Shown in pieces: positions 5,623 to 29,435 of a DNA stretch of 40,634 bases. Under the pieces are notes generated by a model. The model searched no databases and was not told where the DNA came from. It saw only the letters and a program-made list of their open reading frames with translations. This stretch comes from an uncultured Clostridia bacterium. GTDB lineage: Bacteria > Bacillota > Clostridia > Christensenellales > UBA1242. The stretch covers positions 1 through 40,634 of the forward strand of contig CALVNK010000003.1 of NCBI GenBank assembly GCA_944349615.1. The letters are read 5' to 3'. Every line of letters begins with the position of its first letter. Within the stretch, counting starts at the first letter, position 1. The position numbers and the translations under genes are program-made.

Positions 5623-6086
5623 ATGAAATATCTATTGATAGTTGATGTCCAAAATGGATTTATTAATGACAAAAATAGTAAGATTGTTCCAAATATAGAA
5701 AAATTGGTAAAATCCTAGATTTCGATGAGATAATCGTTACTAAATTTATTAATAAACCAGACAGTCAATATTTTAAGCAATTAAATTGGCAAAAAATGAC
5801 AAGTTCGCCGGATATAGATTTGGCATTCAATTTACAAGATCAAGCGAAGGTGACAATTATAGAAAAAACATCTTATTCGCTTCCACAAAACATTGTAAAT
5901 TCTCTTTTTGATGATGATGCCGAGATCTATATCTGCGGACTTAATTATGTTGCTTGCGTGCTTGCGATAGGCTTTCAGTTATTTGATTTAGGATATGGCG
6001 TCAAATTTTTGATGAATGCTATCTCAACTGCAAACTCTGAGCCAATGCCCATTGAATATTTTGAAAAGATTATTATAATAAAATAG
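5623..6086 (+). pseudogene. Frameshifted isochorismatase/nicotinamidase-family cysteine hydrolase
   Basis: ATG 5623 gives MKYLLIVDVQNGFIND...KLVKS-stop (5716-5718). The frame of ORF 5796..6086 continues ILDFDEIIVTKFIN...ICGLNYVACVLA. One extra A in GGTAAAATCC (~5709-5712) would join them. Confidence 0.75.
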
Positions 6087-8134: not shown

Positions 8135-8449
8135 TTATATTTTTCTATTTTTGCCATTGCATCTTGATAGAAGATAGCCTGCAAAGAAATAGAATGCGCG
8201 GTTATCTATATTACATACAGGGTTCGGTGGCGAGCAAGGCGGAAAATTTGGCTGGCAGGGACATGAAAAGTCGCAACTTGGCTGGCAATGAAATGAAAAA
8301 TCGCAATTAGGTGGTGTGGCGTAATGTGGCGGAGGAAAACAGTTTTGGCATGGATTTGAAAATGTCCAATTGCCTAAAAATCTATTACAGCCACAGGGAC
8401 TACAAAGGTCAATGAAAGCGCCTTGGCGATATCTTGTGTTTATAAGCAT
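8135..8449 (-). CDS. Small Cys/Pro-rich protein (possible spore coat/exosporium-type protein)
   Basis: AAAAGGAG SD upstream of the ATG; 13 Cys in 104 aa; internal repeat CDFSFHCQP / CDFSCPCQP. Confidence 0.6.
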   Translation of the reverse strand: MLINTRYRQGAFIDLCSPCGCNRFLGNWTFSNPCQNCFPPPHYATPPNCDFSFHCQPSCDFSCPCQPNFPPCSPPNPVCNIDNRAFYFFAGYLLSRCNGKNRKI

Positions 8450-11118: not shown

Positions 11119-11191
11119 GTTGACCTCTACAATATCAGTTTAGATTTTGGAAAGGAAAATGTGACTATTTTTAAAAATTTGGCAGTGAAGG

Positions 11192-11220
11192 TTGAAAGCG
11201 AAAAAATCCTATCCTATAAT
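11192..11220 (+). promoter_or_regulatory. Sigma-A-type promoter heading the phage-like operon
   Basis: TTGAAA (11192-11197), 17 bp, TATAAT (11215-11220); AAGGGGAG SD before GTG 11253. Confidence 0.7.
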
Positions 11221-11252
11221 TTTGCCATAAGTTGCAAAGGGGAGTGAAATAA

Positions 11253-11543
11253 GTGGATGATGAAGATAAATTAAGAAAAGCACTACTCAAGAAAGCACTT
11301 GGATACAATGCTGACGAAGTGGTCGAAGAATATACTTTTGATGACGAGGGCGCGCTAAAGTTGTCAAAAAAGAAGGTCACAAGCAAGCACTATGGTCCAG
11401 ATATCAGTGCGGTCAAAGTGCTTTTAGAGAGATTTTACAAGAGTTATGAAGATAAGATATCCGCTTTTGATGACGAGGAGCTTGAACAAGAAAGATTGCG
11501 ACTTATAAAAGCACTTAAGGAGAGTGAAAATGGAAATAAATGA
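11253..11543 (+). CDS. Terminase small-subunit-like protein lacking the N-terminal HTH
   Basis: ALLKKALGY..EE...KKVTSKHYGPDISA resembles the ALxKRALGY...KKVxKxVxPDxxA segment of Firmicute phage TerS-like proteins. First gene of the module. Confidence 0.5.
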   Translation: MDDEDKLRKALLKKALGYNADEVVEEYTFDDEGALKLSKKKVTSKHYGPDISAVKVLLERFYKSYEDKISAFDDEELEQERLRLIKALKESENGNK

Positions 11544-11745
11544 GTGTAAAACCAAAACTAAATGCGATTTTTATGGTTGTAATAACCTTGCAAAATATAC
11601 ATTTTCAACTAAAGGACTGATTAAAAGAGATCTGTGTTTTTGCGAAGAATGTCTTGAAGGTATGTATCAAGCGATAGCAAAACTTAAGACTCCAAAGTCA
11701 ATCAAAAGTCCGTTTAAACTAAATAAAAGGAACATTGTCAAATGA
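11530..11745 (+). CDS. Small Cys-rich (putative zinc-finger) protein
   Basis: CDFYGC...LCFCEEC; AAGGAG SD; overlaps both neighbours. Confidence 0.6.
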   Translation: MEINECKTKTKCDFYGCNNLAKYTFSTKGLIKRDLCFCEECLEGMYQAIAKLKTPKSIKSPFKLNKRNIVK

Positions 11746-13589
11746 AAAAGGAAGAAGAAAAAATTGTAAATGAAGTGCTTGCCGATTTTAAAGAGCGAGC
11801 AGAAAAACGAAAGAGTCTTGACCTTATCTGGCAGGTAAACATGAATTTTTTAATGGGCAATCAATATTGCAATATTGGCTATGGTGGAAACCTGGAAGAA
11901 AGCGAAAGACAATATTTTTGGCAGGAGCGAGAGGTGTTTAATCATATTGCACCAACTTTCGATATTCGATATGCAAAACTTACCAAAGTGGACACCGAGA
12001 TAAACATTTTGCCTTCGACTAATGACGAGCGAGATGTAAAATCTGCAAAAGTCTCTAAAAAGATAATAAAATCAATCAAAAACAAACTCAAACTGCAATC
12101 TATTATCGCACAGGGAATAAAATGGAGCGAAGTTTGCGGTACTTGTTTCTATAAGATCACTTGGAATAGTGACAAGGGACAGGTGGTTGGTCTAGATGAG
12201 GGCGGACACCCTGTGAAAAGCGGAGAAGTCGAAGTAAGTGTAGTCAGTCCTTTTGAAATCTATCCTGACAATCTTGTCACTGAAAAACTTGAAGAATTGC
12301 AAAGCATAATTCATGCCAAAGCATATTCTACAGAGGAAGTCAAAGCCATGTTTGATGTGACAGTAAAAGGACAAGATGTCAATGTCTATAGTCTTGATAG
12401 TGTCAATTCGAGTATAGGCGGTCTTGGCTTCAATGGCACAATGCCGAAGATGATTGAAAGCAGAAAGAGTGATAGCGTCTTAGTGATAGAAAGATATAAT
12501 AGACCAAACGCCACCTATCCAAATGGCAGACTTACAATAGTTGCAGGTGATAAACTTGTATATGACGGCGATCTTCCATATAAAATTGGAAGTGATGACG
12601 AGCGTGATTTTCCTTTTGTCAAACAAACAGCGATAGAGGAGCCAGGCTCATTTTTCGGCACAAGCATAATTGAAAGACTGATACCTGTTCAGCGCGCATA
12701 CAATGCAGTTAAAAATCGAAAACATGAGTTTATCAATAGGCTCTCTATGGGAGTTTTGTCTGTCGAAGACGGTTCAGTCGATCTTGACAACTTGGAAGAC
12801 GAGGGCTTGAGTCCTGGTAAAATCTTGGTGTATAGGCAGGGTTCAAGCGAGCCTAAATATCTTCAAGGTGAAAGTTTGCCAAACGGACTGAGCGAAGAAG
12901 AAAATGCCTTGCTTGAAGAATTTAATAAGATAAGTGGAGTCAATGATATATTGAATTCAAGTTCGCTGTCATCAAATATAAGTGGAACAGCACTTGAATT
13001 ATTGATTTCACAGGACGAAGAACGCCTTAATGCCTCTATAGAAAGCATAAGAGGCGCAAATATCGAGATTGCACGCAAAATATTAAAACTTTACAAGCAA
13101 TATGCAATTTTCCCGCGTCTTGCCCGCATTGTTGGCGAAAATGGACAAGTTGAACTATTTTACTTTTCATCGTGCGACATCTCAAGTGATGATGTTGAAA
13201 TAGAAAATGTATCAAGTGGGCTTAGCAGTATGACGCAAAGACGAGAGATGATTTTCTCACTGCTTGAGAAGGGGATTTTTAACGATGAAAATGGTCAATT
13301 GTCGAGCAAGATGAAATGCAAGATATTTGAGATGCTTGGCATGGGCAATTGGGAAAGTGCTCAAGACTTAAACGAGTTACATATCAAAAAGGCGGGAAGC
13401 GAAAACCTAAAGATGCTCGATGGAGTCAACTGCAAGGTCAGTGAGATTGACGAAGATAATCTACACATCAACGAGCATATTGCATTTATGCTTGGCAGTG
13501 ACTATGAAAAGATGTCAATGAAAAATTCAAATCTAGAGCGAGTATTTTTAGAGCATATTCGTGCACATAGACAAAAAATGGAGGGATAA
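11742..13589 (+). CDS. Portal protein-like (podovirus/P22-type)
   Basis: 615 aa; W..NMNFLMGNQY, VSVVSPFEIYPD, FFGTSIIERLIPVQRAYN, SGTALELL; precedes scaffold and capsid genes. Confidence 0.72.
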   Translation: MKKEEEKIVNEVLADFKERAEKRKSLDLIWQVNMNFLMGNQYCNIGYGGNLEESERQYFWQEREVFNHIAPTFDIRYAKLTKVDTEINILPSTNDERDVKSAKVSKKIIKSIKNKLKLQSIIAQGIKWSEVCGTCFYKITWNSDKGQVVGLDEGGHPVKSGEVEVSVVSPFEIYPDNLVTEKLEELQSIIHAKAYSTEEVKAMFDVTVKGQDVNVYSLDSVNSSIGGLGFNGTMPKMIESRKSDSVLVIERYNRPNATYPNGRLTIVAGDKLVYDGDLPYKIGSDDERDFPFVKQTAIEEPGSFFGTSIIERLIPVQRAYNAVKNRKHEFINRLSMGVLSVEDGSVDLDNLEDEGLSPGKILVYRQGSSEPKYLQGESLPNGLSEEENALLEEFNKISGVNDILNSSSLSSNISGTALELLISQDEERLNASIESIRGANIEIARKILKLYKQYAIFPRLARIVGENGQVELFYFSSCDISSDDVEIENVSSGLSSMTQRREMIFSLLEKGIFNDENGQLSSKMKCKIFEMLGMGNWESAQDLNELHIKKAGSENLKMLDGVNCKVSEIDEDNLHINEHIAFMLGSDYEKMSMKNSNLERVFLEHIRAHRQKMEG

Positions 13590-13590
13590 A

Positions 13591-14307
13591 ATGGAAGAAG
13601 AATTCAGAGAACAACCGACGACGGAACTGGCAACCGCTTTAGACCGAGCAAATGAGAATAGTGCTGAAAGTGTGGTCGGCTCTCAAGAAAATCTAGGAAA
13701 ATTCAAATCTGCAAGTGCGTTATATGAGGCCTATAATAATCTTCAGTCTGAATTTACTAGAAAATGTCAGCTTTTAAGTGAACTACAAAAAGAAAAAACA
13801 GGGCAAGAAAACAAAGATGACTATAAGGCAAATGATGATCAATCCGCGCCTGCAAGTCAAGACGAAGAAAAATCCCAATTGCAAACCGACAATCTTGAAA
13901 AGACCGATTTGCAAGTTGGCGACTTTGAAAAAAGCCAAAGTGAAATGCAAGCCTCTCTTGCCGAGTTCCTTTTAAGTCACAAGGAAGCTGAAGGTTTCAT
14001 TGATGAGATTAAAGAAAAGATCTCTCAAGGCAATCAAAATCAAAATCCTTTTGAAAGTGCGTGGGAAAGCGTAATGCTTGCTCACTTAAAGTCACAAGAC
14101 CCGAGCGACGTAATTGTAAATCAATATGTGGCTAGTGATGAAAGGATAAAAGACAAGATAATTCAAGACTATCTATTACAATTAAATGAAGGAAAGCCAC
14201 CAAAGACGCTATCTTCAAACAGTGGACAAAGGTTGTCTAGTGTAATTCCTGACAATCCTTTGACACTTGAAGATGCTAAAAAACTTGTTGGCAAAATGTT
14301 TAGTTAA
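13591..14307 (+). CDS. Capsid scaffolding protein-like
   Basis: Acidic and helical; GKFKSASALYEAYNNLQSEFTRKCQ motif; lies between portal and capsid. Start at ATG 13591 after GGAGGG. Confidence 0.6.
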   Translation: MEEEFREQPTTELATALDRANENSAESVVGSQENLGKFKSASALYEAYNNLQSEFTRKCQLLSELQKEKTGQENKDDYKANDDQSAPASQDEEKSQLQTDNLEKTDLQVGDFEKSQSEMQASLAEFLLSHKEAEGFIDEIKEKISQGNQNQNPFESAWESVMLAHLKSQDPSDVIVNQYVASDERIKDKIIQDYLLQLNEGKPPKTLSSNSGQRLSSVIPDNPLTLEDAKKLVGKMFS

Positions 14308-14471
14308 AATAATTATTTAGCGTTAATTTTTATTAATTTAATAAAAAAATGCAAAAAAATCGCAAAAATTTTAAAAAAATCATAAAAAATGCGATATTTT
14401 AATTATTTTTAACAAACGAAAGTTAAAAACAGAAAATAAAAAAATCTAAAGAATTTTAAAAAGGAGAAAAT

Positions 14472-15692
14472 ATGGTTACATTACAAACAGCAGAGAGTGC
14501 ACTTAAAAATGTCTATCTTGGCGTTGTTGCAAACCAACTCAATGTCAAGGCAAATCCACTCCTTGCTAAAATCAAACAATCTACTAAAGATGTATGGGGT
14601 AAGGAAGTAAGAAAACTTGCTCCTTTCGGTATCAATGGTGGAATTGGTGCAGGTAGTGAAACAGACGCCCTTCCATCATCTTCTGCAAACAGCTATGTAC
14701 AGTTTGTTGCAGACCTAAAAAACCTTTATGGTAAAATCGAGTTGTCAGATAAAGCAATAAGAGCATCTGCAAACAATATCGGCGCTTTTGTAAATTTACT
14801 TTCTGATGAAATGGAAGGACTTGTAAAAGCAAGTTCATTCAACCTTGGCAGAATGTTATATGGAGATGGCAGTGGACTTCTTGCAACTGTCAAATCACAT
14901 GCTTCTAAAGTTATCACTTGCGACAAGGTTAACAACATGATCGAAGGAATGCTTATCGATGTTTACAATACATCAAGTACAAAAGTTAATACAAATCCGC
15001 TCAAGATCGTATATGTTGACAGAGTAAATAATACTGTGACTTATGAATCTAGCGAAACTCTTACTATAAGCGAAAACTTTACTCTCTATGTTCAAGGCTC
15101 AAAAGGCTATGAGATTTCTGGTCTTGGCAAGATTTTCTCAAGCGATGACACTATCTATGGCGTAAGCAGGACAGCTCATCCTTGGCTTAAAGCATACACC
15201 TCATCTAGCGAAACAGAGATCTCTGATATCTTAATTCAAGAAGCAATTGACTTTTTGGATATGAATGTTGACAGTCAAATCAACTTCATTGCCTGCTCAA
15301 GTCAAGTTCGCCGTGCATATCAAGAGTACCTTGGAGCATACAGAAGAAATATCGAAGTTATGACTCTTGATGGTGGATACAAGACAATCTCTCACAACGG
15401 CATACCTGTTGTTGCTGACAGATTTGTAGACAATGACACTATGTATCTATTAAATACAAATGATTTCACATTGCATCAACTTTGCGATTGGAAGTGGCTT
15501 GAAGGCGAAGATGGAAGAATTTTAAAACAAAATCAAGGCTATCCAACTTACAGCGCAACACTTGTAAAATATGCAGAACTTATCTGTGATAAGCCATGCG
15601 GACAGGCAAAGATTTCTAAGATCAAATCTACTGTAACAAACCCATTCCAAACTACAGTAAATGTTACAAATAGCGACGGAGAAACTGCTTAA
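14472..15692 (+). CDS. Phage major capsid protein-like (HK97 fold expected)
   Basis: 406 aa; AAGGAG SD; LKNLYGKIELSDKAIRAS, RMLYGDGSG, HNGIPVVADRFV..MYLLNT; followed by a strong hairpin. Confidence 0.78.
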   Translation: MVTLQTAESALKNVYLGVVANQLNVKANPLLAKIKQSTKDVWGKEVRKLAPFGINGGIGAGSETDALPSSSANSYVQFVADLKNLYGKIELSDKAIRASANNIGAFVNLLSDEMEGLVKASSFNLGRMLYGDGSGLLATVKSHASKVITCDKVNNMIEGMLIDVYNTSSTKVNTNPLKIVYVDRVNNTVTYESSETLTISENFTLYVQGSKGYEISGLGKIFSSDDTIYGVSRTAHPWLKAYTSSSETEISDILIQEAIDFLDMNVDSQINFIACSSQVRRAYQEYLGAYRRNIEVMTLDGGYKTISHNGIPVVADRFVDNDTMYLLNTNDFTLHQLCDWKWLEGEDGRILKQNQGYPTYSATLVKYAELICDKPCGQAKISKIKSTVTNPFQTTVNVTNSDGETA

Positions 15693-15717
15693 TTATTTGT
15701 AAATAAAAGTAAGGGGT

Positions 15718-15751
15718 AAGGCAAAAAATAATATTTAAATTTTTTGCCTTT
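15718..15751 (+). terminator. Terminator hairpin after the capsid gene
   Basis: Perfect 12-bp stem AAGGCAAAAAAT / ATTTTTTGCCTT; the T tail abuts the MITE-like element. Confidence 0.65.
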
Positions 15752-16002
15752 CAGACTGTAGACAAACGGCGCGACCGAAAAATTATAAGTAATTTTTCTT
15801 GCATCGTATCGTCAAAGGCTACGCTTATGTCAAGTTGTTAAACAACTTAGACTTTAACGCTCGCCTTTTCCTCTCCCCATAAATGCAAAAGCATTTACGG
15901 GGTACCCCAAAATAAGACGCCCAAAACCAGTCATTTAGGTATACTAAACTCCTGGCTTTGAGCATTTTTCGAGCCTTGCCTCGCTTGTTTTTCTACAGTC
16001 TG
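15752..16002. mobile_element. 251-bp MITE-like element with 16-bp terminal inverted repeats (IS1182-like ends)
   Basis: Left end CAGACTGTAGACAAAC (15752-15767) and right end GTTTTTCTACAGTCTG (15987-16002) match 15/16. Non-coding, with internal hairpins such as CCCCATAAATGC-AAAA-GCATTTACGGGG (15875-15902). Confidence 0.7.
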
Positions 16003-16129
16003 TTAATTCGTCAAAACTTTAATAATTTTTTCTTTAATTTAATAAAAATTTCAAAAAAAACAGAGATTTTTCAAAAAAATATGCGATTTTTTGAAAATCA
16101 AAAGATATTTTTGCAAAGGAGTTATATTT

Positions 16130-16447
16130 ATGAAACATTTGATTGAAGTGACAAGCGATGTCTTCTATATCTGTCAAAGACTAAAAGATATAGACAAAGA
16201 TTACTATATTCTTTTTAATTTGACCAGTAAAAAGTTCGAAGTTCATGTGCGCGGTCAAGGCAAGAATAGTTATGCGTTTACCGTTCCCTTCGACACACTA
16301 GACGAGCGTACACTTTTCTATGCAAGGAAGACCAGAAGAGAGCGCATGGACAGGCTCATTGCAGAAATAGAAAGAGAAAATGAAAAATATTATGAGAGAG
16401 CGATAAAAGAAGGAGTAGATAAGATAAAGGAGGCTCTATGTCAATAA
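16130..16447 (+). CDS. Hypothetical protein of the phage-like operon
   Basis: AAAGGAG SD before ATG 16130; 105 aa; C-terminal coiled coil; overlaps the next gene. Confidence 0.7.
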   Translation: MKHLIEVTSDVFYICQRLKDIDKDYYILFNLTSKKFEVHVRGQGKNSYAFTVPFDTLDERTLFYARKTRRERMDRLIAEIERENEKYYERAIKEGVDKIKEALCQ

Positions 16448-16992
16448 AAGATATAATAATTCTTGCCTGTAGTTTTACCGAAAATGAAGAGCTTAAAGAG
16501 GCACTTTCCTCAAGTACTGCCAGCCTAGATGAAAAGCAGACAGATCTTGTCAATATGTTTGTCGAGTGCTTTAATTTGATAGCAAACGAAATCGCCAGTG
16601 ACTATATTCCGCATTATGAGCGTGAAACTCTTGTCACCAATGATTTCAAGATCAACTATTCGAGTTTTTCGTCTGTTCCGCTTAAAATCGTTTCGGTAGT
16701 TGATAAAAATGGTCACAAAGTGCGCTTTAAAGCATTTGATGACTACCTAATGGCACTTGCAAGTGAAGTGACCGTCACCTATCTATCTCAGCCTGAAGAA
16801 AAGGGGTTAAATGATAGTGTTGCTAGCGTTATTCCAATGCGGATCTATGCCTATGGTATGGCGAGAGAATACTATCTCATGCAAACTCTCTATGAAGAGG
16901 CGGATATATGGCAAGAGCGTTTCGTACAAGCGCTCCAGTCGCTTTCGCGCAGGAAAAATGAAACAATGATGCCTGCTAGGAGGTGGCTATAA
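16438..16992 (+). CDS. Head-tail adaptor-like protein (P22 gp4 / tail tubular protein A position)
   Basis: 184 aa; GGAGG SD; helical termini around a beta core; downstream of the capsid gene. Function inferred from size and position. Confidence 0.5.
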   Translation: MSIKDIIILACSFTENEELKEALSSSTASLDEKQTDLVNMFVECFNLIANEIASDYIPHYERETLVTNDFKINYSSFSSVPLKIVSVVDKNGHKVRFKAFDDYLMALASEVTVTYLSQPEEKGLNDSVASVIPMRIYAYGMAREYYLMQTLYEEADIWQERFVQALQSLSRRKNETMMPARRWL

Positions 16993-18467
16993 TGAGTTAT
17001 GCCGATAAGATCAAAAGCAAGGAAAAAGAGTTTAGATTTAGTCTTTTTGCGTCTAGTTCTGCAAAAAACAGTGATGAACTTGAAAAAGTCGGACTTACAA
17101 AAGAAAAATATAACCTGATTTGCTCTGAAGGTTCGCTTAAGTCTGGCTATGGTTTTGCTGACTTAAAGATGCCGACAAGCGAAACAGACCTAGACAGTGA
17201 AAGTGTGGTTGATTTTCGTGGCGACTCTGTTAAAGCCATCTGGAAACTCAAGTGGTTTGATGTGAGCGCAGACACCAACAAATACTATCTTTTCTATTTT
17301 AATGATGAAGGATATATTTGTTATGACAATATGTTTGGCGTGCGAGTGACTTCGTTTATTGTGCCAAACACTTTCACGCAAACGCCTTTTTGCGCCTATT
17401 ATCGCAAAGGCACTCAAGACGCACTGCTCCTGTCAGGTGAAGGGGACAGTTTGACCGTGCTTACAGGCGGATCAAACGAGAAAAATGCAGACGCGCCCGA
17501 GATTATATCAATTTGCGTATATTCAGACAAACTCTTTGCAATCACTGCCAGCGATAGAGCGTCACTGATCTATACTGACGATATAGAGATTTTGAATTTC
17601 ACTGACGAAAAGACTGCAGAACTTGATTTTGGTGATGAGCGTGGAAACTTGCAAAGACTCATCTCTTTCAATGACTATCTTTACATTTTCCGCGATTATG
17701 GCATAACAAAACTATCGGTGTATGGAACGAGCGAAACCTTTGCCGTAAATCATCTTTATCATAGTGACAGCTACATATATCCAAACTCGATCTGCCTAAA
17801 TGGCGAGGATGTTTACTTTTTAAACTGCAATGGACTAAAGAAATTTAACGGAACAAGCGTAAGCGATCTTGATCTCGATGGCTTTGACCTGATTAAAGAT
17901 ATAAATCAAGCAAAATGCTATGCCTCGATCTATGACGGCAAGTATTATCTTGCGTGCAGGGGAAAGGTCAGCGGTGACGGTGTAGGGTGCGAGAATAATA
18001 CTCAAGGCTACACAAACAATATGCTTTTTGTCTATGACATCTTGACAAAACAGACCGACATTGTCCGTGGTGTTGATATCAATATGCTTTTGACTTTCAA
18101 TAACCCTTTTAAATCAAAATTGCTGGCGTGTTTCAATGGCTCAGATTTAATAGGAAAGGTTGGTCAACTTTCTAAAGATGGCAAATTTTTCTCAAGCCCA
18201 ATAAAGAAATATTGGAAAAGCACTTGTACCGACTTTGGCTATCCAAATGCAAGCAAACGAGTGTCATCTTTCAATATCAAAAGTCTTTATGATTGCAAGG
18301 TGAGGATTGTCAGCGATAAGGATAGTAAAGAGTTTGAGATAGGTGGCAATAGTGACATACAAAAGATTAAAGTAAACCTAAGAGGCAATGAATTCTATTT
18401 TGAAATTACAAGCGAAGATTTGGTGGATATCAGTAATTTTGTTGTAAATGTGAGCGTTAAAGAATGA
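16992..18467 (+). CDS. Tail nozzle/stabilisation protein-like (P22 gp10 / tail tubular protein B position)
   Basis: About 490 aa, beta-rich with propeller-like segments (LISFNDYLYIFRDYGI, ASIYDGKYYLA, MLFVYDILTK) and C-terminal YWKSTCTDFGYPNASKRV. TAATG coupling with the previous gene. Confidence 0.55.
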   Translation: MSYADKIKSKEKEFRFSLFASSSAKNSDELEKVGLTKEKYNLICSEGSLKSGYGFADLKMPTSETDLDSESVVDFRGDSVKAIWKLKWFDVSADTNKYYLFYFNDEGYICYDNMFGVRVTSFIVPNTFTQTPFCAYYRKGTQDALLLSGEGDSLTVLTGGSNEKNADAPEIISICVYSDKLFAITASDRASLIYTDDIEILNFTDEKTAELDFGDERGNLQRLISFNDYLYIFRDYGITKLSVYGTSETFAVNHLYHSDSYIYPNSICLNGEDVYFLNCNGLKKFNGTSVSDLDLDGFDLIKDINQAKCYASIYDGKYYLACRGKVSGDGVGCENNTQGYTNNMLFVYDILTKQTDIVRGVDINMLLTFNNPFKSKLLACFNGSDLIGKVGQLSKDGKFFSSPIKKYWKSTCTDFGYPNASKRVSSFNIKSLYDCKVRIVSDKDSKEFEIGGNSDIQKIKVNLRGNEFYFEITSEDLVDISNFVVNVSVKE

Positions 18468-18562
18468 AACTTGTATATCTAGACACTATTGATAGGATCA
18501 ATCGAGAGAAAATTCAAAGGGAGATAGAGATTGCAAAAAAGTTAATTGTCAAGGAGAATTAA
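18464..18562 (+). CDS. 32-aa microprotein MKLVYLDTIDRINREKIQREIEIAKKLIVKEN (not in the ORF track)
   Basis: ATGA overlap with the upstream stop; its own stop ends 1 nt before the holin ATG, so it fills the gap exactly. Confidence 0.5.
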   Translation: MKLVYLDTIDRINREKIQREIEIAKKLIVKEN

Positions 18563-18563
18563 A

Positions 18564-18788
18564 ATGGATTTCTGGACAGAACTTGTCAAAATCATTGTCA
18601 GCAATGGCATATTTGCAATGCTCTTTGTATTCTTGTTTTTCTATCAACTTAAAGATAGTGCAAAAAGAGAAGAGTCATATATACAGACAATCGAGTCACT
18701 AACCGATCATTTGGATGTGCTCGAGCAGGTGCGTGATGAAATACGCGAACTGAAATCTCTTGTTACAGGGGGAGAAGATGAAGAATAA
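18564..18788 (+). CDS. BhlA/UviB-family holin-like protein
   Basis: SNGIFAMLFVFLFFYQLKDSAKREESY: one TM segment followed by a coiled coil; AAGGAG SD. Confidence 0.8.
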   Translation: MDFWTELVKIIVSNGIFAMLFVFLFFYQLKDSAKREESYIQTIESLTDHLDVLEQVRDEIRELKSLVTGGEDEE

Positions 18789-19110
18789 AATAAAATCTTA
18801 TGGTTTTTGGACAGCTCTTGCTAGTGCTGTGGTCGTGCTTGTCAATGCACTAGGGCAGATGTTTGGCTTTTCAGTAGATAATGAAATAATCACAAATGTG
18901 ATTATGGCTATCGCAGGGCTTCTTGTTGTGCTTGGCGTGGTGACAATGCCAAAAGGCGAAGATGGCAATCAACAGGAAGGGAAGAGCGAAGAAACAGACG
19001 CAGAAAGCAAAGAAACGGACGCAGAAAGCGAAAGTGAAACGCTTTTTCTTGCTGAAGATGAGAAAGACCTTAGCGCAGAAAAGGATCAGGAAACAATGGA
19101 TCATGAATAG
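18778..19110 (+). CDS. Two-TM phage holin-like protein with an acidic C-terminal tail
   Basis: KIKSYGFWTALASAVVVL...LLVVLGVVTMP; GGGGAG SD; tail contains ETDAES twice. Confidence 0.68.
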   Translation: MKNKIKSYGFWTALASAVVVLVNALGQMFGFSVDNEIITNVIMAIAGLLVVLGVVTMPKGEDGNQQEGKSEETDAESKETDAESESETLFLAEDEKDLSAEKDQETMDHE

Positions 19111-19216
19111 TGCTAACGCCAAAATGCGCCTTGTTTTAAAAATTTTTCCTTTTATTTTTAAACAAAAACATTCAAAGACCAATAAAAGCCTTCTTAAAAA
19201 AAGAGGCGAAAAAAAA

Positions 19217-19246
19217 GGGGGATAGCGTAAAACTATCCCTATTTTT
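19217..19246. terminator. Terminator closing the phage-like operon (probably bidirectional)
   Basis: GGGGATAG-CGTAAAA-CTATCCCT stem with an A run upstream and a T run downstream. Confidence 0.7.
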
Positions 19247-19366: not shown

Positions 19367-21523
19367 TTAGTCATAATCAGGGCCATTATCTGTAAGTCCA
19401 CCCCAAAGAGCGCCAGCATAGAATTTGTATCTGTTTGGAGTTGTGTCACTTTTGCGTTTTAACACCTTGAATGTTACTTCAAGATAGTCACAGCCCCCTG
19501 CGCCACCAAACATATCTGAATTAAATCTTCCTGAAAGGTAGGTATAACCATCTGGAATTAGTTCGTTGTCAAGTTCACTTGAGCCTGGCTCTACAATTTC
19601 ATAGTACTTTCTTACATTTGTTGTCCCCTTAAGTACGAGTGGTTCTTCGCTTATAAGCAGACTTGATGAATATCCATTTTCACCAACGTCTGTCATAAGT
19701 ATGTTTTCACCTATGTCAGTCTTGAATACTCCAAGACGCTCGATATCCACTCCGTCAAAGTATATTCCGCTGTAGTGGTCTTCTGGTGCGCCTGTTTCTT
19801 CGGCATCAAAGCCCTTGCCACCTGTTCCATCTGCCCAGTCCCAATATACATTTTCTTGATCCCATGGACCGTCATAAACTCTAATCTGTTTTGACTTGAG
19901 TACGGTGAGTGTGTCTGTCGCGTTGTTGTAATAATTAAGGTCAACGATTATGTCAAGATATTCTTCTCCGTAGACGCCTTCAGTTGTGCCGTCAAGGCCA
20001 GAGTCATATTTGAGTGCAATTCCAACTCCATCAACGCGCACTTCTTCGTTTACCATAAATACGATTGATTGATATTCATAAGGTCTGATTTTGTCTGCGG
20101 AGTTCTCTTGCCCAGGAACTGCAAAACTTTTGTCCGAATATACATTGTTTGATACTCCTGCATATTCCATTACTTCAGATGCAGGGAAGCGCTGGTCAAT
20201 TGTGACATCGCTTCCGCCATCATTTCCAATTGAAACTTCACTACATACATTTTGTATTATGTTTGCAACTGTGCCTTCATAATCTCTGCCAAGTTCAATT
20301 CTACTTGACATAGTGTCAAATTCATAGGAATAAGAATATTCTCCGTTTTCATCTACTGTGACAACTTCGGTGACATTTGAGTATGTGTAAAAGTAGTCTG
20401 AATTATCTACTACATCTCTACCGATAATGTTGTCAAGCACCCACGCCTCAATCTTTTCAATTTGACGATCGGCAAGCCCTACGAAAGAGCCGAGAATTTT
20501 AAAGTTTTCCTTTGCCTTTGCAAGCGCAAGGTCAACACTTGATTGATCATTTGTGGCAGTGTGTCCTGTCACTTGCACATTAGGAGTGCCGTCATTTGCA
20601 AAAGTCACAGTCACTTGAGCGGGCTCTAAGTCCACAGCATAGCAATAGATTGCATACTCAAGCGCCTTAACAAAGTCAGAATATTCTTGCTCCTCGGTTT
20701 CAACAGCATCTTCAGTGCCGAGATAGTAATTTCTAAGAGTGGTTGTGTATGCAGAAGTAGAATAATGGTTATTATTGGTTTCACTCAGTGCAGTATAGAA
20801 ATTGCGTAAACCTGAAAGATCATAAGGAGAATATATTGAATCATAGATAATTACGCTGCCATCAGTTATGTATGATGTTACCGAAGAAGACATTCCGTTT
20901 TTAAATGTTAGATAAGCATTAGTGTCTTGAGAATTATTATTTAATAAAGTCATATTATAAGGGGCGCCCCACTTCCAAGCAAGCGAGGTGTCCGCACCGA
21001 CAATTTGATATTGTTGTGGCAGATTTTGTGATATAGTCAAATCTTCATCACTTATACTACTATTATTGACAATTTGTCTACTTGTTACAGTGCCTTCAGT
21101 ATTGACTTGATAACGCATACTATCATAAAGATAAGGTAAGTTGTTTTCAATATCAAAATTTGGATTGTTTGATTGAATATTGTTATATATGTCCTCACCT
21201 GTGCTTGTATTTGCAATTTCATAAATATTGTATAAAAAGTTTATTATATGCCAAGCATATTGACCATAATAATCATTTGTACCACCAACAGTCGCACCAG
21301 AGCCTTCATCATAGTTATAGTCGTCAGGGCGATAAAGTACCTTTGTGCCGTAAAGACTTGATGATGTGATGGTTTCAGGATCACTTTCTTCAAAGTCATC
21401 AAGTTCAGCAAAGTCATCAAGCTCAGCAAATTCATCACAACCTGAAAGTAATGCAAGTGCAGGGAATATGCACAACATTAATAGACAGATTATTCTAAAA
21501 ATAATAGTTTTTTTCTTCTTCAT
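19367..21523 (-). CDS. Large acidic lipoprotein, unknown function
   Basis: Basic N-terminus, hydrophobic core, lipobox LSGC; 718 aa; D/E/N/Y-rich. Confidence 0.75.
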   Translation of the reverse strand: MKKKKTIIFRIICLLMLCIFPALALLSGCDEFAELDDFAELDDFEESDPETITSSSLYGTKVLYRPDDYNYDEGSGATVGGTNDYYGQYAWHIINFLYNIYEIANTSTGEDIYNNIQSNNPNFDIENNLPYLYDSMRYQVNTEGTVTSRQIVNNSSISDEDLTISQNLPQQYQIVGADTSLAWKWGAPYNMTLLNNNSQDTNAYLTFKNGMSSSVTSYITDGSVIIYDSIYSPYDLSGLRNFYTALSETNNNHYSTSAYTTTLRNYYLGTEDAVETEEQEYSDFVKALEYAIYCYAVDLEPAQVTVTFANDGTPNVQVTGHTATNDQSSVDLALAKAKENFKILGSFVGLADRQIEKIEAWVLDNIIGRDVVDNSDYFYTYSNVTEVVTVDENGEYSYSYEFDTMSSRIELGRDYEGTVANIIQNVCSEVSIGNDGGSDVTIDQRFPASEVMEYAGVSNNVYSDKSFAVPGQENSADKIRPYEYQSIVFMVNEEVRVDGVGIALKYDSGLDGTTEGVYGEEYLDIIVDLNYYNNATDTLTVLKSKQIRVYDGPWDQENVYWDWADGTGGKGFDAEETGAPEDHYSGIYFDGVDIERLGVFKTDIGENILMTDVGENGYSSSLLISEEPLVLKGTTNVRKYYEIVEPGSSELDNELIPDGYTYLSGRFNSDMFGGAGGCDYLEVTFKVLKRKSDTTPNRYKFYAGALWGGLTDNGPDYD

Positions 21524-23105: not shown

Positions 23106-25214
23106 GTGAATATACAAAGGTTTGTCAATTTTCGATGGATATTCTATCCTTTTCTTGCCTGTCTTTTTGGAGTAATTGTTGCGGGCAGGCTTTTTGCAAG
23201 TTCGATTGAAACCTTAATAATTGCGATTATACTTTTAAGTGTGCTGGCTGGTTTTCTTATATGGAAGAAGAAATACAAAATAATGCTCACGTTATTTCTA
23301 TCATTCTTCATAGGTTGCGGGTTATATTTTATAGGTTATTTTACTACAAAGCCGAATGACTATCAAGGGCAGGTGGCAGTCACTGGCAGAGTCAGTGACA
23401 GTTTTGAAGAAAACGACTATGACTATGTTGTAATACTTGATAGTGTCACCATTGACGGCAAAGCGGAGAAGAACATAAAGGCATACATATCAAAAGGCGG
23501 ACAAAAGGTATCAGTTGGAGACACCATCACATTTGAAAGTGAGATAGAGTCTATCGATGTATTTACACTCGGCTCCTTCAACAGTGACTACTATAGAAAC
23601 GGAGTTGGATACACAGCCGAGATTGCCAGCGATGACCTTGTGATACTTGAAAGTGGCAAGGTGTACATAGACGAGCAGATTCGCATGGCGATCAAAGAAA
23701 AGTTATATGAGAATATGACGCAGGACAGTGCTTCTATTTCCTATGCTGTTCTTTTCGGCGACCAGTCGGGTATATCCTTTGAGATAAAGGGAGCCTATCG
23801 CGATTCAGGCATAATTCATCTTTTAGCGGTATCTGGACTCAACATAAGTTTTTTAATAGCAATCATCTTTGGTGGTCTAAAACTTTTAAAGTGCAACAAA
23901 TATGTCAACTTTCTTTTGACATCCTTTATAATCATATTTTATTGTGTACTTTGTGGCATGACGCCGTCAGTTTTGCGAGCAGGGTTTATGGGGATCATCA
24001 TGATCATTGCCATGCTGTTTGGCAGGCGGTATGACTCACTCAATGCAATGGGTGTGGCTGGGTTTACAATACTTTTAATCAGTCCGCTTTCAGCCTTTGA
24101 TGTAGGCTTTTTGATGTCTATTGCTTGCGTATGTGGAATAATTTTGCTTTATCCATGCTTTTACAAATTTTTTGCCAAATTCTGTCCTAATTTAATTGCG
24201 CAGTACCTATCGATGTCTTTTTCAGCACAAGTGACCATATTGCCATTTTTGGCACTCTTTTCATCACAGTTCAACCTTCTATTCTTTATGATCAATTTGA
24301 TTGTTGTGCCACTTTTCTCGATTTTATATCCATTTCTTGTGTTTATGTCAGTGATAGTCTTTATCTTGCCATTTTTATCGCCACTTTTCAAACTTATAGA
24401 CTATGGTATGCAACTTGTATTGATAATAGCAGGCATTTTTGCAAACTCATCACTTGTCGTCAACTTGTCGCCAATGTCGTTTGGAGTGATGTGCTTTTTC
24501 TTCCTGTTGATATTTGTGCTTGGGCAGTTTTTTATGGCAAAAAAGATAAGCAAGTGGGTGCTTTCTTGTGTGCTTATCATGGCACTTTCAATAAACTACG
24601 GCTTTTCTTCTCTTGCCTCCAACATGAAAGCAGGGGTATGTGTCCTGACAAGTTATGACGATCAAGCGGTCATATTACAAAACACATCAGGCGAAAGATT
24701 GCTTGTTGGACAGACTTACATACTTTCTCGCTATATGAATAATCACAATGTCAAAGACTTTGATGGCTATGTCGCGTTTGAGTCCTTGACAAGCGGACGC
24801 ATTGAATATTTAAGTCAATACAATATCACAAGTTACATCGCACGCGAGGGTGACGAAAGCTATGACAGTGTATTTGTAACGACCGAAAACAAACCTATTA
24901 AACTTGGCGACTTTATCATATCTTATCTTGTTGTAGGGGATGATATTCTTGGAGTACAAGTATATTTTGACGAAATAATGGTTTTTGTTGCAAATGATGA
25001 TGAAAGTGGATATAATATAGATTATTACAACTCTGTTTTTGACGCATTTCCGCCTTCACTCGTGGTGGCGGGCGAAAACGATATGCTTTGCAACGGAAAT
25101 TACATATCATATTCAAGATATAAAAACTATTATTCGACCTTTGATTTTGCCTCTGATGGCAACCTGTATTTCAAACTTGATGGTCAATATTTCATTATAA
25201 GGGGGCTTGATTGA
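23106..25214 (+). CDS. comEC: ComEC/Rec2 competence protein
   Basis: GIIHLLAVSGLNIS, PSVLRAGFM, DVGFLMS; N-terminal OB-like region; directly upstream of holA. Confidence 0.9.
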   Translation: MNIQRFVNFRWIFYPFLACLFGVIVAGRLFASSIETLIIAIILLSVLAGFLIWKKKYKIMLTLFLSFFIGCGLYFIGYFTTKPNDYQGQVAVTGRVSDSFEENDYDYVVILDSVTIDGKAEKNIKAYISKGGQKVSVGDTITFESEIESIDVFTLGSFNSDYYRNGVGYTAEIASDDLVILESGKVYIDEQIRMAIKEKLYENMTQDSASISYAVLFGDQSGISFEIKGAYRDSGIIHLLAVSGLNISFLIAIIFGGLKLLKCNKYVNFLLTSFIIIFYCVLCGMTPSVLRAGFMGIIMIIAMLFGRRYDSLNAMGVAGFTILLISPLSAFDVGFLMSIACVCGIILLYPCFYKFFAKFCPNLIAQYLSMSFSAQVTILPFLALFSSQFNLLFFMINLIVVPLFSILYPFLVFMSVIVFILPFLSPLFKLIDYGMQLVLIIAGIFANSSLVVNLSPMSFGVMCFFFLLIFVLGQFFMAKKISKWVLSCVLIMALSINYGFSSLASNMKAGVCVLTSYDDQAVILQNTSGERLLVGQTYILSRYMNNHNVKDFDGYVAFESLTSGRIEYLSQYNITSYIAREGDESYDSVFVTTENKPIKLGDFIISYLVVGDDILGVQVYFDEIMVFVANDDESGYNIDYYNSVFDAFPPSLVVAGENDMLCNGNYISYSRYKNYYSTFDFASDGNLYFKLDGQYFIIRGLD

Positions 25215-26155
25215 AAACTTTAAAACAAAGACTAAAAAGCGGACTTGACAATTTCTATCTTCTTCAAGGCGAAGATAGTTATTTGTATGATAGGGCACTT
25301 TCGATGATTAAAAAGGCTTGCAATATTTCCTTTCCTGATTTTAATTATCAGGTTTTTGACGATGAAAATTTTTCGGCAAACGCCCTTCGAGCAAGCCTCG
25401 AAAGTATGCCTTTCTCAGACGAAAAAAGATTGACTGTTGTAAAAAATGTTGAAAAATTATCTGAAAACGACAAAAAAATCATCACTTCCTATTGCGAAAA
25501 TCCGCTTTCTTCAAGCGTGCTTGTGGTTTGCGACTATGCAAATAAATTTGATTTTTTAAAGCCCTATTCGCAGTTTGTAGATTGCAAACGCTTTGATTAT
25601 CCACTCGCAAAGGCAATTATTGTAAATGATTTCGCAAAATACAACAAGAAGATAAGTGAAGAGGCGATCACTGCTCTGTATGACAGTTGCAATGGCTATC
25701 TTTCAAAGATTTCGCTTGAAATACAAAAAATATCCGCCTACCTTGGTGATGAGGAGTTTGTTACAAAACAAGTTGTCGACAACTTGACCAGCAAGGATAG
25801 CGAATATATGGTTTTTGAACTTACTGAAAGTCTAGGCGCGAAGAAAACAAGTCGGGCAATCGAACTTCTAAACCTTATGCTTAAACAACAAGGACTTTTG
25901 GCTCTCATTACAAATCATTTTCGAAGACTATTTTTTATTTCCATTTCAGATCAAGACAACAAAACGCTTGCAAATCTTCTCGGCGTCAAGGAGTATGCAG
26001 TTACCAAAATGCGCACGCAAGTTAAAAACTTTTCAAAAGTGCAACTTAAAAAGATCTATTCTCTCCTTGAAGAAGTTGATTATATGATAAAAAGTGGTGC
26101 AATGCTACAAGATACAGCATTAAATTATCTTGTCTTTTCAATACTTAATATATGA
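25211..26155 (+). CDS. holA: DNA polymerase III delta subunit
   Basis: YLLQGEDSYL, SMPFSDEKRLTVV, VFELTESL, VDYMIKSG; canonical comEC-holA order. Confidence 0.88.
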   Translation: MKTLKQRLKSGLDNFYLLQGEDSYLYDRALSMIKKACNISFPDFNYQVFDDENFSANALRASLESMPFSDEKRLTVVKNVEKLSENDKKIITSYCENPLSSSVLVVCDYANKFDFLKPYSQFVDCKRFDYPLAKAIIVNDFAKYNKKISEEAITALYDSCNGYLSKISLEIQKISAYLGDEEFVTKQVVDNLTSKDSEYMVFELTESLGAKKTSRAIELLNLMLKQQGLLALITNHFRRLFFISISDQDNKTLANLLGVKEYAVTKMRTQVKNFSKVQLKKIYSLLEEVDYMIKSGAMLQDTALNYLVFSILNI

Positions 26156-26453
26156 TAAGGACAAAACTTAATTTACAATTTACAAAAATTCAGTGAAAAT
26201 TTCATATAATATCTAGTCAGAATTTTTAAAAAAACCTAGTAAAATTTCAATGAAAGTCTACCAAGTATTAAATAAGAAATTTGCTCAGATTTTCAATTTG
26301 ACTTTGGTCACTTGTATATAGAAATTTGTCAAATTTTAATCTATGTCTGGCTAGTTTTTAATAAGATAATTAGCCATTTTTTCATAAAAGCCTTATCAAG
26401 ACTAATAAATTTATTTTTTCAAAATTAAGCAATCATAATTTGATAAATTAAAA

Positions 26454-27259
26454 TAGCATAGTTATTTTTTCATAACTATGCTAATTTTTAGTTATTATTA
26501 CCGAAAGAGAGTGGCTAAGTAACTTTTTCGAGCGCAAGCTATTAACTGTTTTTGCTGGATAGTTATTAAAACATAACTATGTAATATTATTAAATTTAAT
26601 CTTTTAATGCACGAAATTTAATCTTTATTAAGCAAATTTGAAGCGTTTTTTTTGGTAGGGGGAGGGTAACTGAAGTAAGCCCTGCAAACTTATTTTGAAA
26701 AATATGGAATTGAGAGAATTTAAGAATTTAGTTTTTGACTTTACATAAAATCGATTAAAAGTAGCATAGTTATGAAAACATAACTATGTTAGCTTTTAGT
26801 TATACTATGTTTTTTAGTTATGATTTCCGAAAGAAAGTGGCTAGGGCACTTTTTTAACATAAGTTCTCGCTTGTTTTCTTGCAGTCTGTAAATTGTTAAT
26901 ATCTTAGCATAGTTATGAAAACATAACTAAGTTATATTATTATATTTAATCATCTATTGTATTACACAAAATTTAACCTTTATTTACACAAATTTGAAGT
27001 GTTGTGGAGGGTAAACCTAAGTAGCCATGTAAACTTATTTTGAAAATATGGAGTTGAGAGAATTTAAGAATTTAGTTTTTGACTTTATATAAAATTAATT
27101 TAAAACTAAAATAGTTATTAAAAAATAACTATGTTGTATTATATTTAATATTCAATTGCACAAAATTTAATCTTTATTTCTACAAACTTTGAAGCATTGG
27201 GCGGGGGATAAATCTAAGTAAGTCCTGCAAAATTAGTTTGAAAAATGTTGAGTTGAGAG
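26454..27259. repeat. Degenerate non-coding repeat array (A-B-A-B-B') with five ATAGTTAT-N6-ATAACTA(T/A) palindromes
   Basis: Palindrome cores start at 26458, 26559, 26766, 26909 and 27111. Exact 34-bp duplication at 26710-26743 and 27054-27087. CCGAAAGARAGTGGCTA occurs in both A units. Confidence 0.85.
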
Positions 27260-27517
27260 GTAGGCACAGAGACAAAAAATGTAATATGCTGATAAGTAAA
27301 ACTAAATAATCCTTTTTATAAATTTGAGTTTCTAATTATGATTTAAAAAAAACGATTAAAACTTAATTTTATAAAAATATTATGCATGAAATAAAAAGTC
27401 CAGACAAATATATCTGAACTTAAAATAATGAAATCATAAACTTAAAATGTTGAGCGAAATTTAGTAAAGTAAGGCCAAATGTCTAAATAAAGACCTGATC
27501 CGTATGATTTTTTGAGA

Positions 27518-28792: not shown

Positions 28793-29435
28793 AATTAAAG
28801 TCTCCTTTACTCACTTTTTATGATATCACAATTTTTAAAATAATACAACTACAGGCAACTTTTTTTAAAATACAAAAAACATAACACTTTCTATATAAAA
28901 TGCCGGAAGCATAAACTCCTCTACAAAAAACTATAATTTAATAGTCTTTGAAGTCGGACACTTTCATTGTTTTTAAATCTCTGCAGTTAAAATTGCATTA
29001 TTCTGCGATTTTTTGGCATACCATTTGCTTGATACATATTTAGATTTATACACAATAATACCATTATTCATAATAAAATTTCCACCTTTTACAAGTTTTT
29101 AATCTAAAATTGCTTAGTTTATTTTATCATTTTCTAAACATTTATTTATAGGTTGTTTTCGTGGTCAGGGGGCAGTTGTTTTATGCTCTGTTTTTCTTTT
29201 TGACTTAAGATTTCGGCGAGCTGGCTTTCTAGTTTTTGCTGAGATTTAATTAATTTTATTTTAATGCATATTGTACGATTTATTTTTATCATAAAATTTA
29301 AAAAAATCAATAAAGAAAAGTAATTAACATAATTTTTATTTAAAAAAATTGGTAAAATATCTTTTAGTATTAAGAAATACAATTTCTATTTGCAATTTTT
29401 GATAAAATATGCTATTGTTAAAGACGGGAGAGAAA

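Follow-up and report, generated by a model that had tools for sequence, protein, structure and literature searches.

A Candidate Podovirus-Derived, Multi-Locus Particle System Resembling a Gene Transfer Agent in Small-Genome Gut Clostridia

Introduction

An operon of phage-type head, tail, and holin genes occupies positions 11192–19246 of contig CALVNK010000003.1 (assembly GCA_944349615.1) from an uncultured Clostridia bacterium (Christensenellales; UBA1242); the window analyzed here, 40,634 nucleotides (nt) in length, is this entire 40.6 kb contig. We propose that the operon is one part of a podovirus-derived, vertically inherited, multi-locus particle system resembling a gene transfer agent (GTA), and that the system is a chromosomal trait of a lineage of gut Clostridia with small genomes; judged from sequences, this reading has a probability of about 0.6. 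Three loci are distinguished, namely the operon in the window, a locus on contig C13 with genes for an activator, the large terminase (TerL), and two surface proteins, and a locus on contig C40 encoding a coiled-coil protein. Phage-derived structural and packaging genes were found in the chromosome without integration, replication, or lysogeny genes, and vertical inheritance across the clade was found together with purifying selection. The anatomy resembles that of a GTA because the packaging, particle, and lysis genes are intact, mobility genes are missing, the loci are split, inheritance is vertical, selection is evident, and the loci have a promoter type and an activator in common; particle formation, cargo, and DNA transfer are what we infer from it. 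The genome (1,103,572 bases in 85 contigs, 93.9% complete, 0.96% contaminated) is only 1.10 Mb, a point overlooked in the initial annotation of this contig.

Gene Content of the Operon

Every substantial open reading frame (ORF) on 11192–19246 lies on the plus strand, and the region is a single promoter-to-terminator unit. Its features are given below, with protein lengths in amino acids (aa), expect values (E), and, for predicted structures, the predicted local distance difference test score (pLDDT) and the predicted template modeling score (pTM).

11172–11220, plus strand: conserved promoter with an A/T-rich stretch, TGGCAGT, 5 nt, TTGAAA (−35), 17 nt, and TATAAT (−10); layout kept upstream of the orthologous operon across the genus
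11253–11543, plus strand: TerS-like small protein, 96 aa, weakly assigned (phrog_309, terminase small subunit, E 1.1e-5)
11524–11745, plus strand: Cys4 zinc-ribbon protein, 73 aa (cysteines C14, C19, C40, and C43 invariant in 77/77 orthologues)
11742–13589, plus strand: portal protein, 615 aa (Pfam P22_portal, E 1.1e-19; phrog_156, E 7.4e-37)
13561–14307, plus strand: putative scaffold protein, 248 aa (position between portal and capsid; acidic low-complexity sequence)
14472–15692, plus strand: major capsid protein, 406 aa (phrog_14242, E 7.2e-54)
15750–16012 (within 15702–16018), no strand: repeat of ~265 bp with inverted ends, resembling a miniature inverted-repeat transposable element (MITE), with at least 15 full or partial copies on other contigs
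16091–16447, plus strand: conserved small protein, about 105–118 aa (present in 91 loci, other families of the order included)
16438–16992, plus strand: head-to-tail adaptor, 184 aa (AlphaFold2 model from an orthologue alignment, pLDDT 89.4)
16983–18467, plus strand: tail nozzle protein, 494 aa (AlphaFold2 model from an orthologue alignment, pLDDT 86.8, pTM 0.87)
18546–18788, plus strand: BhlA-family holin, 80 aa (Pfam Holin_BhlA, E 8.8e-16, 58.1 bits; one hydrophobic segment)
18760–19110, plus strand: Phage_holin_1-family holin, 116 aa (Pfam, E 1.6e-6, 28.9 bits, above cut-off; two hydrophobic segments)
19218–19240, no strand: two-way intrinsic terminator hairpin at the operon end

The initial annotation had described a self-contained unit of ~8 kb with a promoter at its start and a terminator at its end, holding a list of head, tail, and holin genes, with no integrase or large terminase and with non-phage genes directly on both sides, and this description holds. 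TTGAAA-17-TATAAT at 11192–11220 is the best promoter-like site of the region (11/12 match), and the hairpin at 19218–19240 closes the unit. Across the region, neither promoter-like sites (30 found versus 23.3 expected) nor terminator-like sites (5 versus 5.8) are enriched, so the two boundary sites draw their weight from their position and from the conservation of the promoter. Among the proteins, portal, capsid, and holins are assigned by family, adaptor and nozzle by fold, the TerS-like protein weakly, and the scaffold by position. Phage_integrase had no match on the contig and six elsewhere in the genome; no replication gene was found on the contig, and family searches found no TerL within the window.

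The portal protein scored 70.9 bits against P22_portal (PF16510), well above the gathering cut-off of 26.1. The protein at 14472–15692 scored 14.3 bits against the Pfam family SU10_MCP (PF17236), under the gathering cut-off of 24.1, and it is still assigned as the capsid protein by its match to phrog_14242; its look-alikes in a protein atlas are SU10_MCP-type capsid clusters, and its profile gave weak capsid matches only (E 0.04 and 0.22) among the sequences of solved structures. The scaffold-position gene is kept in place in 93 loci, and neither it nor the zinc-ribbon protein has a family match in Pfam or PHROGs. The small protein at 16091–16447, possibly a head-completion or connector protein, had no match in Pfam, PHROGs, or solved-structure sequences. 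The identities of the adaptor and the nozzle are based on predicted folds. Foldseek matched the adaptor model to Pa223 (9nwi_A, template modeling (TM) score 0.65) and SU10 (7z47_A, TM 0.59), as well as to adaptor chains of GP4, N4, and T7, and a search of solved-structure sequences with the adaptor profile returned nothing useful. Similarly, the nozzle model matched the Pa223 tail (9nwi_Y, E 1e-18, TM 0.70), VP1 (8zkk_O, TM 0.72), and also SU10, GP4, P22, and T7 gp12, and a nozzle profile search found SU10 7z47_G at E 0.0012. Portal, capsid, adaptor, and nozzle are thereby recognizable, a check by fold or family that had been proposed initially. In addition, the 116-aa holin matched the phrog_297 holin (E 6.6e-13); an 87-aa ORF at 18962–19225 is without support. 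In loci L084, L031, L032, and L033 of other lineages, a DUF7934 gene of ~300–340 aa (E 1e-30 to 1e-54), which may encode a lysin or a fiber, stands between nozzle and holins.

The TerS-like gene is conserved in 86 loci, and its product matches phrog_309 only at profile positions 196–263 of 319, in the C-terminal part; a profile search found no match for it among solved structures. A complex of TerL with the TerS-like protein, predicted from alignments made in this analysis, scored a median of 0.34 (runs 0.34, 0.30, and 0.45) versus 0.00 for the best control, with partner pLDDT of at least 74 and run-to-run contact agreement of at least 90%. In calibration, 58 of 80 solved complexes attained the mark, as did 2 of 110 mismatched pairs; passes at 0.60 or less comprised 7 of the 80 solved complexes and both mismatches, and a pass in that range is more often wrong than right. 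The predicted complex weakly supports the pairing.

The MITE-like repeat, overlooked in the initial annotation, separates the capsid gene from the one that follows. Sister strains, as seen in metatranscriptomic contigs, have 47 nt in place of 15702–16018; the insert is peculiar to this genome and lies outside the ancestral operon. A terminator-like hairpin is present inside it at 15970–15987.

Distribution, Inheritance, and Selection

A first draw found the capsid gene in all 24 other genus species sampled, and a larger one in 60 of 61 genus genomes, including all 48 that were at least 90% complete; the sole genome without a match was 84% complete. These genes are almost always single copy and are 45–100% identical to that of this genome. 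The ten operon genes stand in identical order in 14/14 genus loci, and the same ABC-transporter left flank was found in all 13 loci that reach it, with a variable right flank. Across the order, matches to the capsid profile were found in 195 of 401 sampled genomes, and the families fall into two groups, with matches in 20/20, 20/21, 17/20, 10/11, and 6/6 genomes versus 0/21, 0/21, 0/20, 0/20, and 0/20. In the class outside the order, 15 of 384 sampled genomes matched, nine of them in one family, a count that says nothing firm about Faecalibacterium. Eight genomes of the nine-match family (code f96) matched at about E 1e-145, and this family may represent another clade in which a copy has become fixed. 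When one genome per species was scanned, at least 594 relatives came to light, labeled as uncultured Clostridia and in several cases as Christensenella sp. or Candidatus Onthoplasma; the best 80 matches were all close relatives. In IMG/VR, 59 related loci were found, most on short contigs and a few on contigs of 30–68 kb.

The divergence of the capsid follows that of the host. Capsid identity tracked the identity of the unlinked host helicase PcrA with a Spearman coefficient of 0.88 over 55 genomes, and of 0.90 over the 32 genomes with full-length PcrA. A FastTree phylogeny of portal, capsid, and nozzle was compared with the tree of the adjacent ABC genes on 39 rows (of 42, 3 duplicates had been removed, and a locus of another family was left out on account of its non-orthologous ABC gene); the two trees have 28 of 36 splits in common, versus 0.24 on average and 3 at most in 1000 label shuffles. 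No supported conflicts were observed between them, and their patristic distances correlate at 0.92. The agreement with the ABC tree indicates that the capsid genes have not been replaced, and the match to the species tree rests on the PcrA comparison.

Purifying selection was estimated with our own script of the Nei–Gojobori method as the ratio of nonsynonymous to synonymous substitution rates (dN/dS) in five independent close pairs, a sixth pair that repeated one genome being left out. System genes gave 0.00–0.32 and host genes 0.01–0.10; within the system, the values were 0.02–0.08 for the capsid, 0.03–0.05 for the portal, 0.05–0.11 for the nozzle, and up to 0.32 for the holins. ORF lengths are stable over ~100 loci, with a single full-length ORF for the portal in 90/90 loci and for the adaptor in 76/76. 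The capsid passed the full-length check in 96/96 loci, but this check reads through in-frame stops; a true mid-gene stop was found in one among 100 capsid genes, at locus L130 (10001–11188), as a TAA at codon 243. L130 comes from a genome bin of another lineage, and its stop could mark a genuine pseudogene or stem from faulty assembly. Flags of “stops inside” in capsid matches were traced to the genes’ own stop codons at the match end and discarded.

The initial annotation had argued for a vertically maintained system rather than a decaying prophage, and the prevalence of 60/61, the Spearman coefficient of 0.88, the matching tree, the low dN/dS, and the rarity of stops bear this out. It had named a patchy distribution, closest homologues inside prophages, frequent pseudogenes, dN/dS near 1, and a conflicting tree as signs to the contrary. 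The distribution is not patchy within the lineage, the closest homologues lie in the same chromosomal context and not in prophages, one true mid-gene stop was seen in ~100 loci, dN/dS in close pairs is far below 1, and the tree agrees with that of the neighboring host genes.

The Terminase Locus

A Terminase_6N search of the genus revealed an intact TerL ORF of ~475–510 aa in 58 of 61 genomes, so that the orphan TerL that was to be looked for elsewhere has been located. In this genome, TerL lies on C13 and carries Terminase_6N and Terminase_6C domains (ATPase and nuclease); 16/16 orthologues keep its Walker A, Walker B, and acidic nuclease residues unchanged. The C13 unit consists of a 164-aa activator, a 268-aa protein on the opposite strand, TerL, and a 786-aa protein, and was kept in 9/9 further loci. 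The activator matched phage transcriptional-activator families at E 3e-8, and an orthologue matched Sigma70_r4_2 at E 1e-9. Both the 268-aa and the 786-aa protein have a signal peptide and a C-terminal membrane anchor, and orthologues of the latter carry GLUG and InlB-repeat-type domains.

Of six loci from other families of the order, five have TerL immediately before the TerS-like or portal gene, and these operon-attached homologues are 51–62% identical to the orphan TerL. As the other families keep TerL attached and many other lineages have the whole set in one block of ~14 kb, the split-locus state is derived. Within the genus, the TerL locus and the operon are about 7 to 145 kb apart, which argues for the GTA trait of being unable to transmit its own full gene set; the one-piece block of other lineages measures ~14 kb. 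For all ten one-piece elements examined in other lineages, one end is followed within ~4 kb by ORFs for which this genome has homologues on other contigs; eight of these elements have such ORFs on both sides. With such ORFs this close, there is no room for lysogeny or replication modules, and no integrase, repressor, or replication gene adjoined the element in the genus or other-lineage loci examined. A 2.4 Mb genome of another family holds two copies, with TerL attached.

A Promoter Motif in Common

A 28-nt weight matrix was built from 34 operon promoters of the genus and scanned over both strands of the whole genome, giving 21 hits of at least 14 bits. TerL, the activator gene, and the C40 gene are each preceded by a site among the top eight. 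The following hits are of note.

C40:2747: 27.8 bits, 68 nt upstream of the gene of the 392-aa coiled-coil protein, the best hit after the training site
C23:15885: 26.4 bits, ahead of a Terminase_4 small-terminase gene, on a contig that also carries an integrase
C13:8833: 24.8 bits, upstream of TerL
C45:5432: 23.6 bits, preceding small ORFs without assigned function
C13:10182: 17.7 bits, ranked eighth, with the activator gene 73 nt downstream

Of 16 activator loci examined, 10 have the motif ahead of the activator gene, and 12/12 loci with C40-type coiled-coil genes have it upstream of that gene, correctly oriented and at 14.6–29.3 bits. The matrix scan suggests that the dispersed loci are coordinately regulated via this common motif. 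A sigma-54 reading of TGGCA...TTG was dropped, as its two elements stand one base too far apart, GC is lacking at −12, and a sigma-A −10 box follows 17 nt further on. The third locus, on C40, encodes the 392-aa coiled-coil protein behind the conserved promoter motif of the operon; we regard this protein with low confidence as a candidate needle or fiber, and its C-terminal half gave no lead in a protein atlas (best score 0.85). On C23 (L154), the minus strand at 11800–15885 carries Terminase_4, a ParB-like nuclease/methylase, a radical SAM protein, and further unassigned genes, with an integrase on the contig; this may be a satellite or another kind of mobile element with a late promoter of the same type.

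In the mechanism that we propose, the activator would turn on the common promoter type at the three loci in some cells, and the portal, scaffold, and capsid proteins would assemble into procapsids. TerL, aided by the TerS-like protein, would then pack headfuls of cellular DNA, and the adaptor and nozzle would seal the portal. The holins plus a cell-wall hydrolase would free the particles, which would inject their DNA into related cells, the mode of action of a GTA.

Alternative Explanations

Several observations weigh against the proposed GTA-like system. The phage-derived genes evolve ~1.9 times faster than neighboring host genes, and the ABC genes that serve as “host” genes are linked to the operon, leaving PcrA as the only unlinked comparison. 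Over all pairs with dS of 0.05–1.5, the median dN/dS was 0.21–0.73 for system genes versus 0.09 for ABC genes, a result that is unreliable and was set aside since these pairs are near saturation (median dS ~1.3). The TerS assignment is weak, none of the three loci yielded a recognizable endolysin, searches revealed no clear receptor-binding protein, and the DUF7934 gene of other lineages’ elements was not found in this genome. In addition, the C40 protein is very divergent (matched in 45 of 61 genus genomes, or 36 of 48 high-quality ones, at E ≤0.001 and 25–36% identity) and gives generic coiled-coil matches only, and the 268-aa and 786-aa neighbors of TerL look like cell-surface rather than virion proteins. 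The MITE-like insert, which parts the capsid from the tail genes and carries a hairpin, may lower the expression of the latter. Some capsid matches in the order may be ordinary prophages, given the 2.4 Mb genome with two copies. Finally, a headful could exceed the ~14 kb of the one-piece element, as cultured relatives have genomes of 45 kb.

The strongest competitor, which we consider unlikely and yet well ahead of the other alternatives, is a domesticated particle system with another function, such as a PBSX-like killer, programmed lysis that frees DNA or nutrients for kin, or an anti-phage capsid module. All the evolutionary evidence fits any selected function equally, and both the failure to recognize a receptor-binding protein or an endolysin and the presence of two conserved cell-surface proteins inside the TerL unit are in keeping with such a function, as is the filing of the BhlA family in PHROGs under “bacteriocin production or immunity.” The invariant ATPase and nuclease motifs of TerL and the constrained portal argue, however, that DNA packaging itself is selected, and GTA-like packaging of chromosomal DNA is described in related gut bacteria in the accessible part of one report (PMC12946183). 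A PBSX-type killer would be contractile-tailed, whereas the genes found here are of the short-tailed type. The initial interpretation, a vertically maintained particle-forming system that is either a GTA or a DNA-free capsid device, is supported as far as genes, conservation, and selection are concerned, and a GTA function is what we infer beyond that.

It is highly improbable that the operon is a still-mobile temperate phage or satellite that occupies the same site in every species, with its conservation reflecting repeated infection. The 59 capsid loci in IMG/VR, a few on contigs of 30–68 kb, the two copies in the larger genome of another family, and the integrase-bearing C23 element with the same promoter motif could be read in this way. 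Against it, no integrase, repressor, or replication gene stands beside the element in the genus or in other lineages; the loci stand at distances of 7–145 kb, and cellular ABC-transporter genes separate TerL from the other genes; divergence tracks both the unlinked PcrA and the neighboring host-gene tree; and almost every genome has a single copy. Just as improbable is a cryptic prophage remnant that decays neutrally and has not yet been deleted, as might be supposed from the lack of TerL, integrase, replication, or fiber genes in the window, the MITE inserted in the operon, and the one capsid mid-gene stop in ~100, given that the system is intact in 60/61 genus genomes though capsid identity drops to 45%, that close-pair dN/dS is 0.00–0.32 with a full-length portal in 90/90 loci and one true capsid stop in 100, that TerL is kept elsewhere in 58/61 genomes, and that the genomes are of only 0.7–1.5 Mb, where neutral DNA is not expected to last.

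Comparison with Known Systems

To our knowledge, few GTAs have been described outside the Alphaproteobacteria. The initial annotation was aware of no characterized example of this architecture in gut Clostridia, and this statement has been overtaken by FpGTA of Faecalibacterium prausnitzii, published in 2026 as the first GTA from the human gut (Borodovich et al., Nat Commun 2026; PMC12946183). As described in the accessible part of that paper, FpGTA is podovirus-like, is encoded in two operons 125 kb apart, and forms particles of ~40 nm that pack about 8.5–9 kb (PMC12946183). It is the closest published system, likened here by its description only. According to that description, both FpGTA and the system reported here are chromosomal, podovirus-like clusters without an integrase in gut Clostridia, are conserved genus-wide, hold small TerS, TerL, portal, scaffold, capsid, and short-tail genes in ~10 kb, and have further genes at a distant second locus, 125 kb away in FpGTA (PMC12946183). 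The described gene orders differ, with TerS before TerL in FpGTA and TerL before the TerS-like gene or at another locus here (PMC12946183). Operon II of FpGTA is reported to contain baseplate, fiber, receptor-binding protein, holin, and endolysin genes; here, unlike in that account of FpGTA, the holins close the head–tail operon and no endolysin was found in the three loci (PMC12946183). For genome bins of Christensenellaceae, the same source reports that chromosomal DNA is packaged in a GTA-like manner in virus-like-particle fractions of human feces, with the genes unnamed in the part available (PMC12946183). In the literature searched, no other described GTA gene cluster for the order was found, and this paper, of which a part was accessible, is the only one bearing on it (PMC12946183).

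The comparison with the GTAs of Alphaproteobacteria draws on general knowledge of RcGTA and its kin. RcGTA is siphovirus-like, with a gene set and regulators unrelated to those of the system here, and GTAs of its type are unable to transmit themselves. Vertical inheritance across a large clade under purifying selection, and a head–tail cluster plus extra loci under a common regulator, are common to RcGTA-type GTAs and the present system; the latter differs from RcGTA in being podovirus-like and in having its own sigma-region-4-type activator.

Among cultured phages, the closest are the Jasminevirus podoviruses of Arthrobacter and other actinobacteria (e.g., Brad, MH450114.1), with capsids 25–28% and portals 22–26% identical over more than 85% of the length. 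They have in common with the one-piece relatives a Terminase_6N TerL upstream of the portal, followed by a scaffold-position gene and the capsid. Jasminevirus phages are complete, with 45 kb genomes, lysins, many tail genes, and replication functions; they are distant relatives from another host phylum. The adaptor and nozzle folds match those in the tails of Pa223, VP1, SU10, GP4, P22, and T7 (TM 0.59–0.72, identity 8–14%), and these phages also carry fibers or tailspikes and ejection proteins, none of which was recognized here.

Three other classes were considered and set aside. The test for an intact prophage was negative, as no contiguous integrase, repressor, replication genes, TerL, or fibers were found. 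Capsid-forming phage-inducible islands (cf-PICIs) have an integrase, a replication/primase module, att sites, and their own capsid genes; here, the contig is without an integrase, and the system has split loci and a fixed, syntenic location. Encapsulins are HK97-fold shell proteins without a portal or terminase, and here both portal and TerL are present and constrained.

Significance

A wider proposal, to which we assign somewhat less than even odds, is that the system represents an ancient GTA family, ancestral to much of the order, that arose by a domestication separate from that of the alphaproteobacterial GTAs, perhaps also from that of FpGTA, and that has its own sigma-like activator and a three-locus regulon. 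If so, the family would be near-universal in many families of the order, absent from others, and retained even in genomes of ~1 Mb. It would then be the genetic basis of the Christensenellaceae packaging reported from fecal virus-like-particle fractions in the accessible part of the FpGTA paper (PMC12946183).

Among GTA-like elements, the phylogenetic footprint of the system is unusually broad and clean. The locus provides a concrete gene set that can be tested across an entire order of common gut bacteria, most of them uncultured, as well as a candidate master activator and a promoter motif that flags further regulon members. More than 1% of a ~1 Mb genome is spent on a system under purifying selection, which suggests a strong benefit, and the system may offer a handle on DNA exchange or repair in gut bacteria with reduced genomes. 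For virome work, the 59 IMG/VR fragments are filed as viral; if they derive from GTAs, they are not phages.

Flanking Genes and Expression Hints

Both flanks of the operon are cellular and directly adjoin it. To the left are hrcA, grpE, dnaK, dnaJ, and rsmE, followed by the ABC transporter (ATPase and permease); to the right are a lipoprotein-like 718-aa ORF, further surface-protein-like ORFs, comEC, and holA. Besides the 718-aa ORF, the flanking genes include a 377-aa ORF that looks like an anchored surface protein and a 342-aa membrane protein with 11 segments; none of the three had a match in Pfam or PHROGs, and they are not counted among the parts of the system. SpoIVA is encoded within the window, which makes the spore-forming host assumed initially plausible. 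comEC (23106–25214), which encodes the DNA-uptake channel, lies 2–4 kb downstream of the holins both here and in many genus genomes. The pairing of comEC with holA is common in Firmicutes, and the proximity to the holins is probably a coincidence.

Three minor features were noted elsewhere in the window. A 96-aa ORF between dnaK and dnaJ (5796–6086) has a partial Isochorismatase match below cut-off and is possibly a gene remnant. A Cys- and Pro-rich 104-aa ORF on the minus strand (8135–8449), without a family match, is weakly conserved beside rsmE in some genus genomes. The stretch 26001–29000 has a G+C content of 0.25–0.29 versus ~0.35 elsewhere and contains a 424-aa minus-strand ORF without a family match.

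In two metatranscriptomic libraries from one study, contigs of ~98% identity span the whole operon, and a single contig of 7539 nt covers 11335 to 19096. These contigs are a weak hint of expression and cannot prove transcription, and their depths across the operon (69, 310, and 140) cannot rank genes. The bins at 19509–20842, within the 718-aa ORF, had almost no cover in the two libraries, which is not readable as silence because this gene varies between strains. Among the sequencing runs containing at least half of the sampled sequence words, 17 of 24 entries were labeled as chicken, bird, or gut metagenomes, and the runs with this content span 14 studies.

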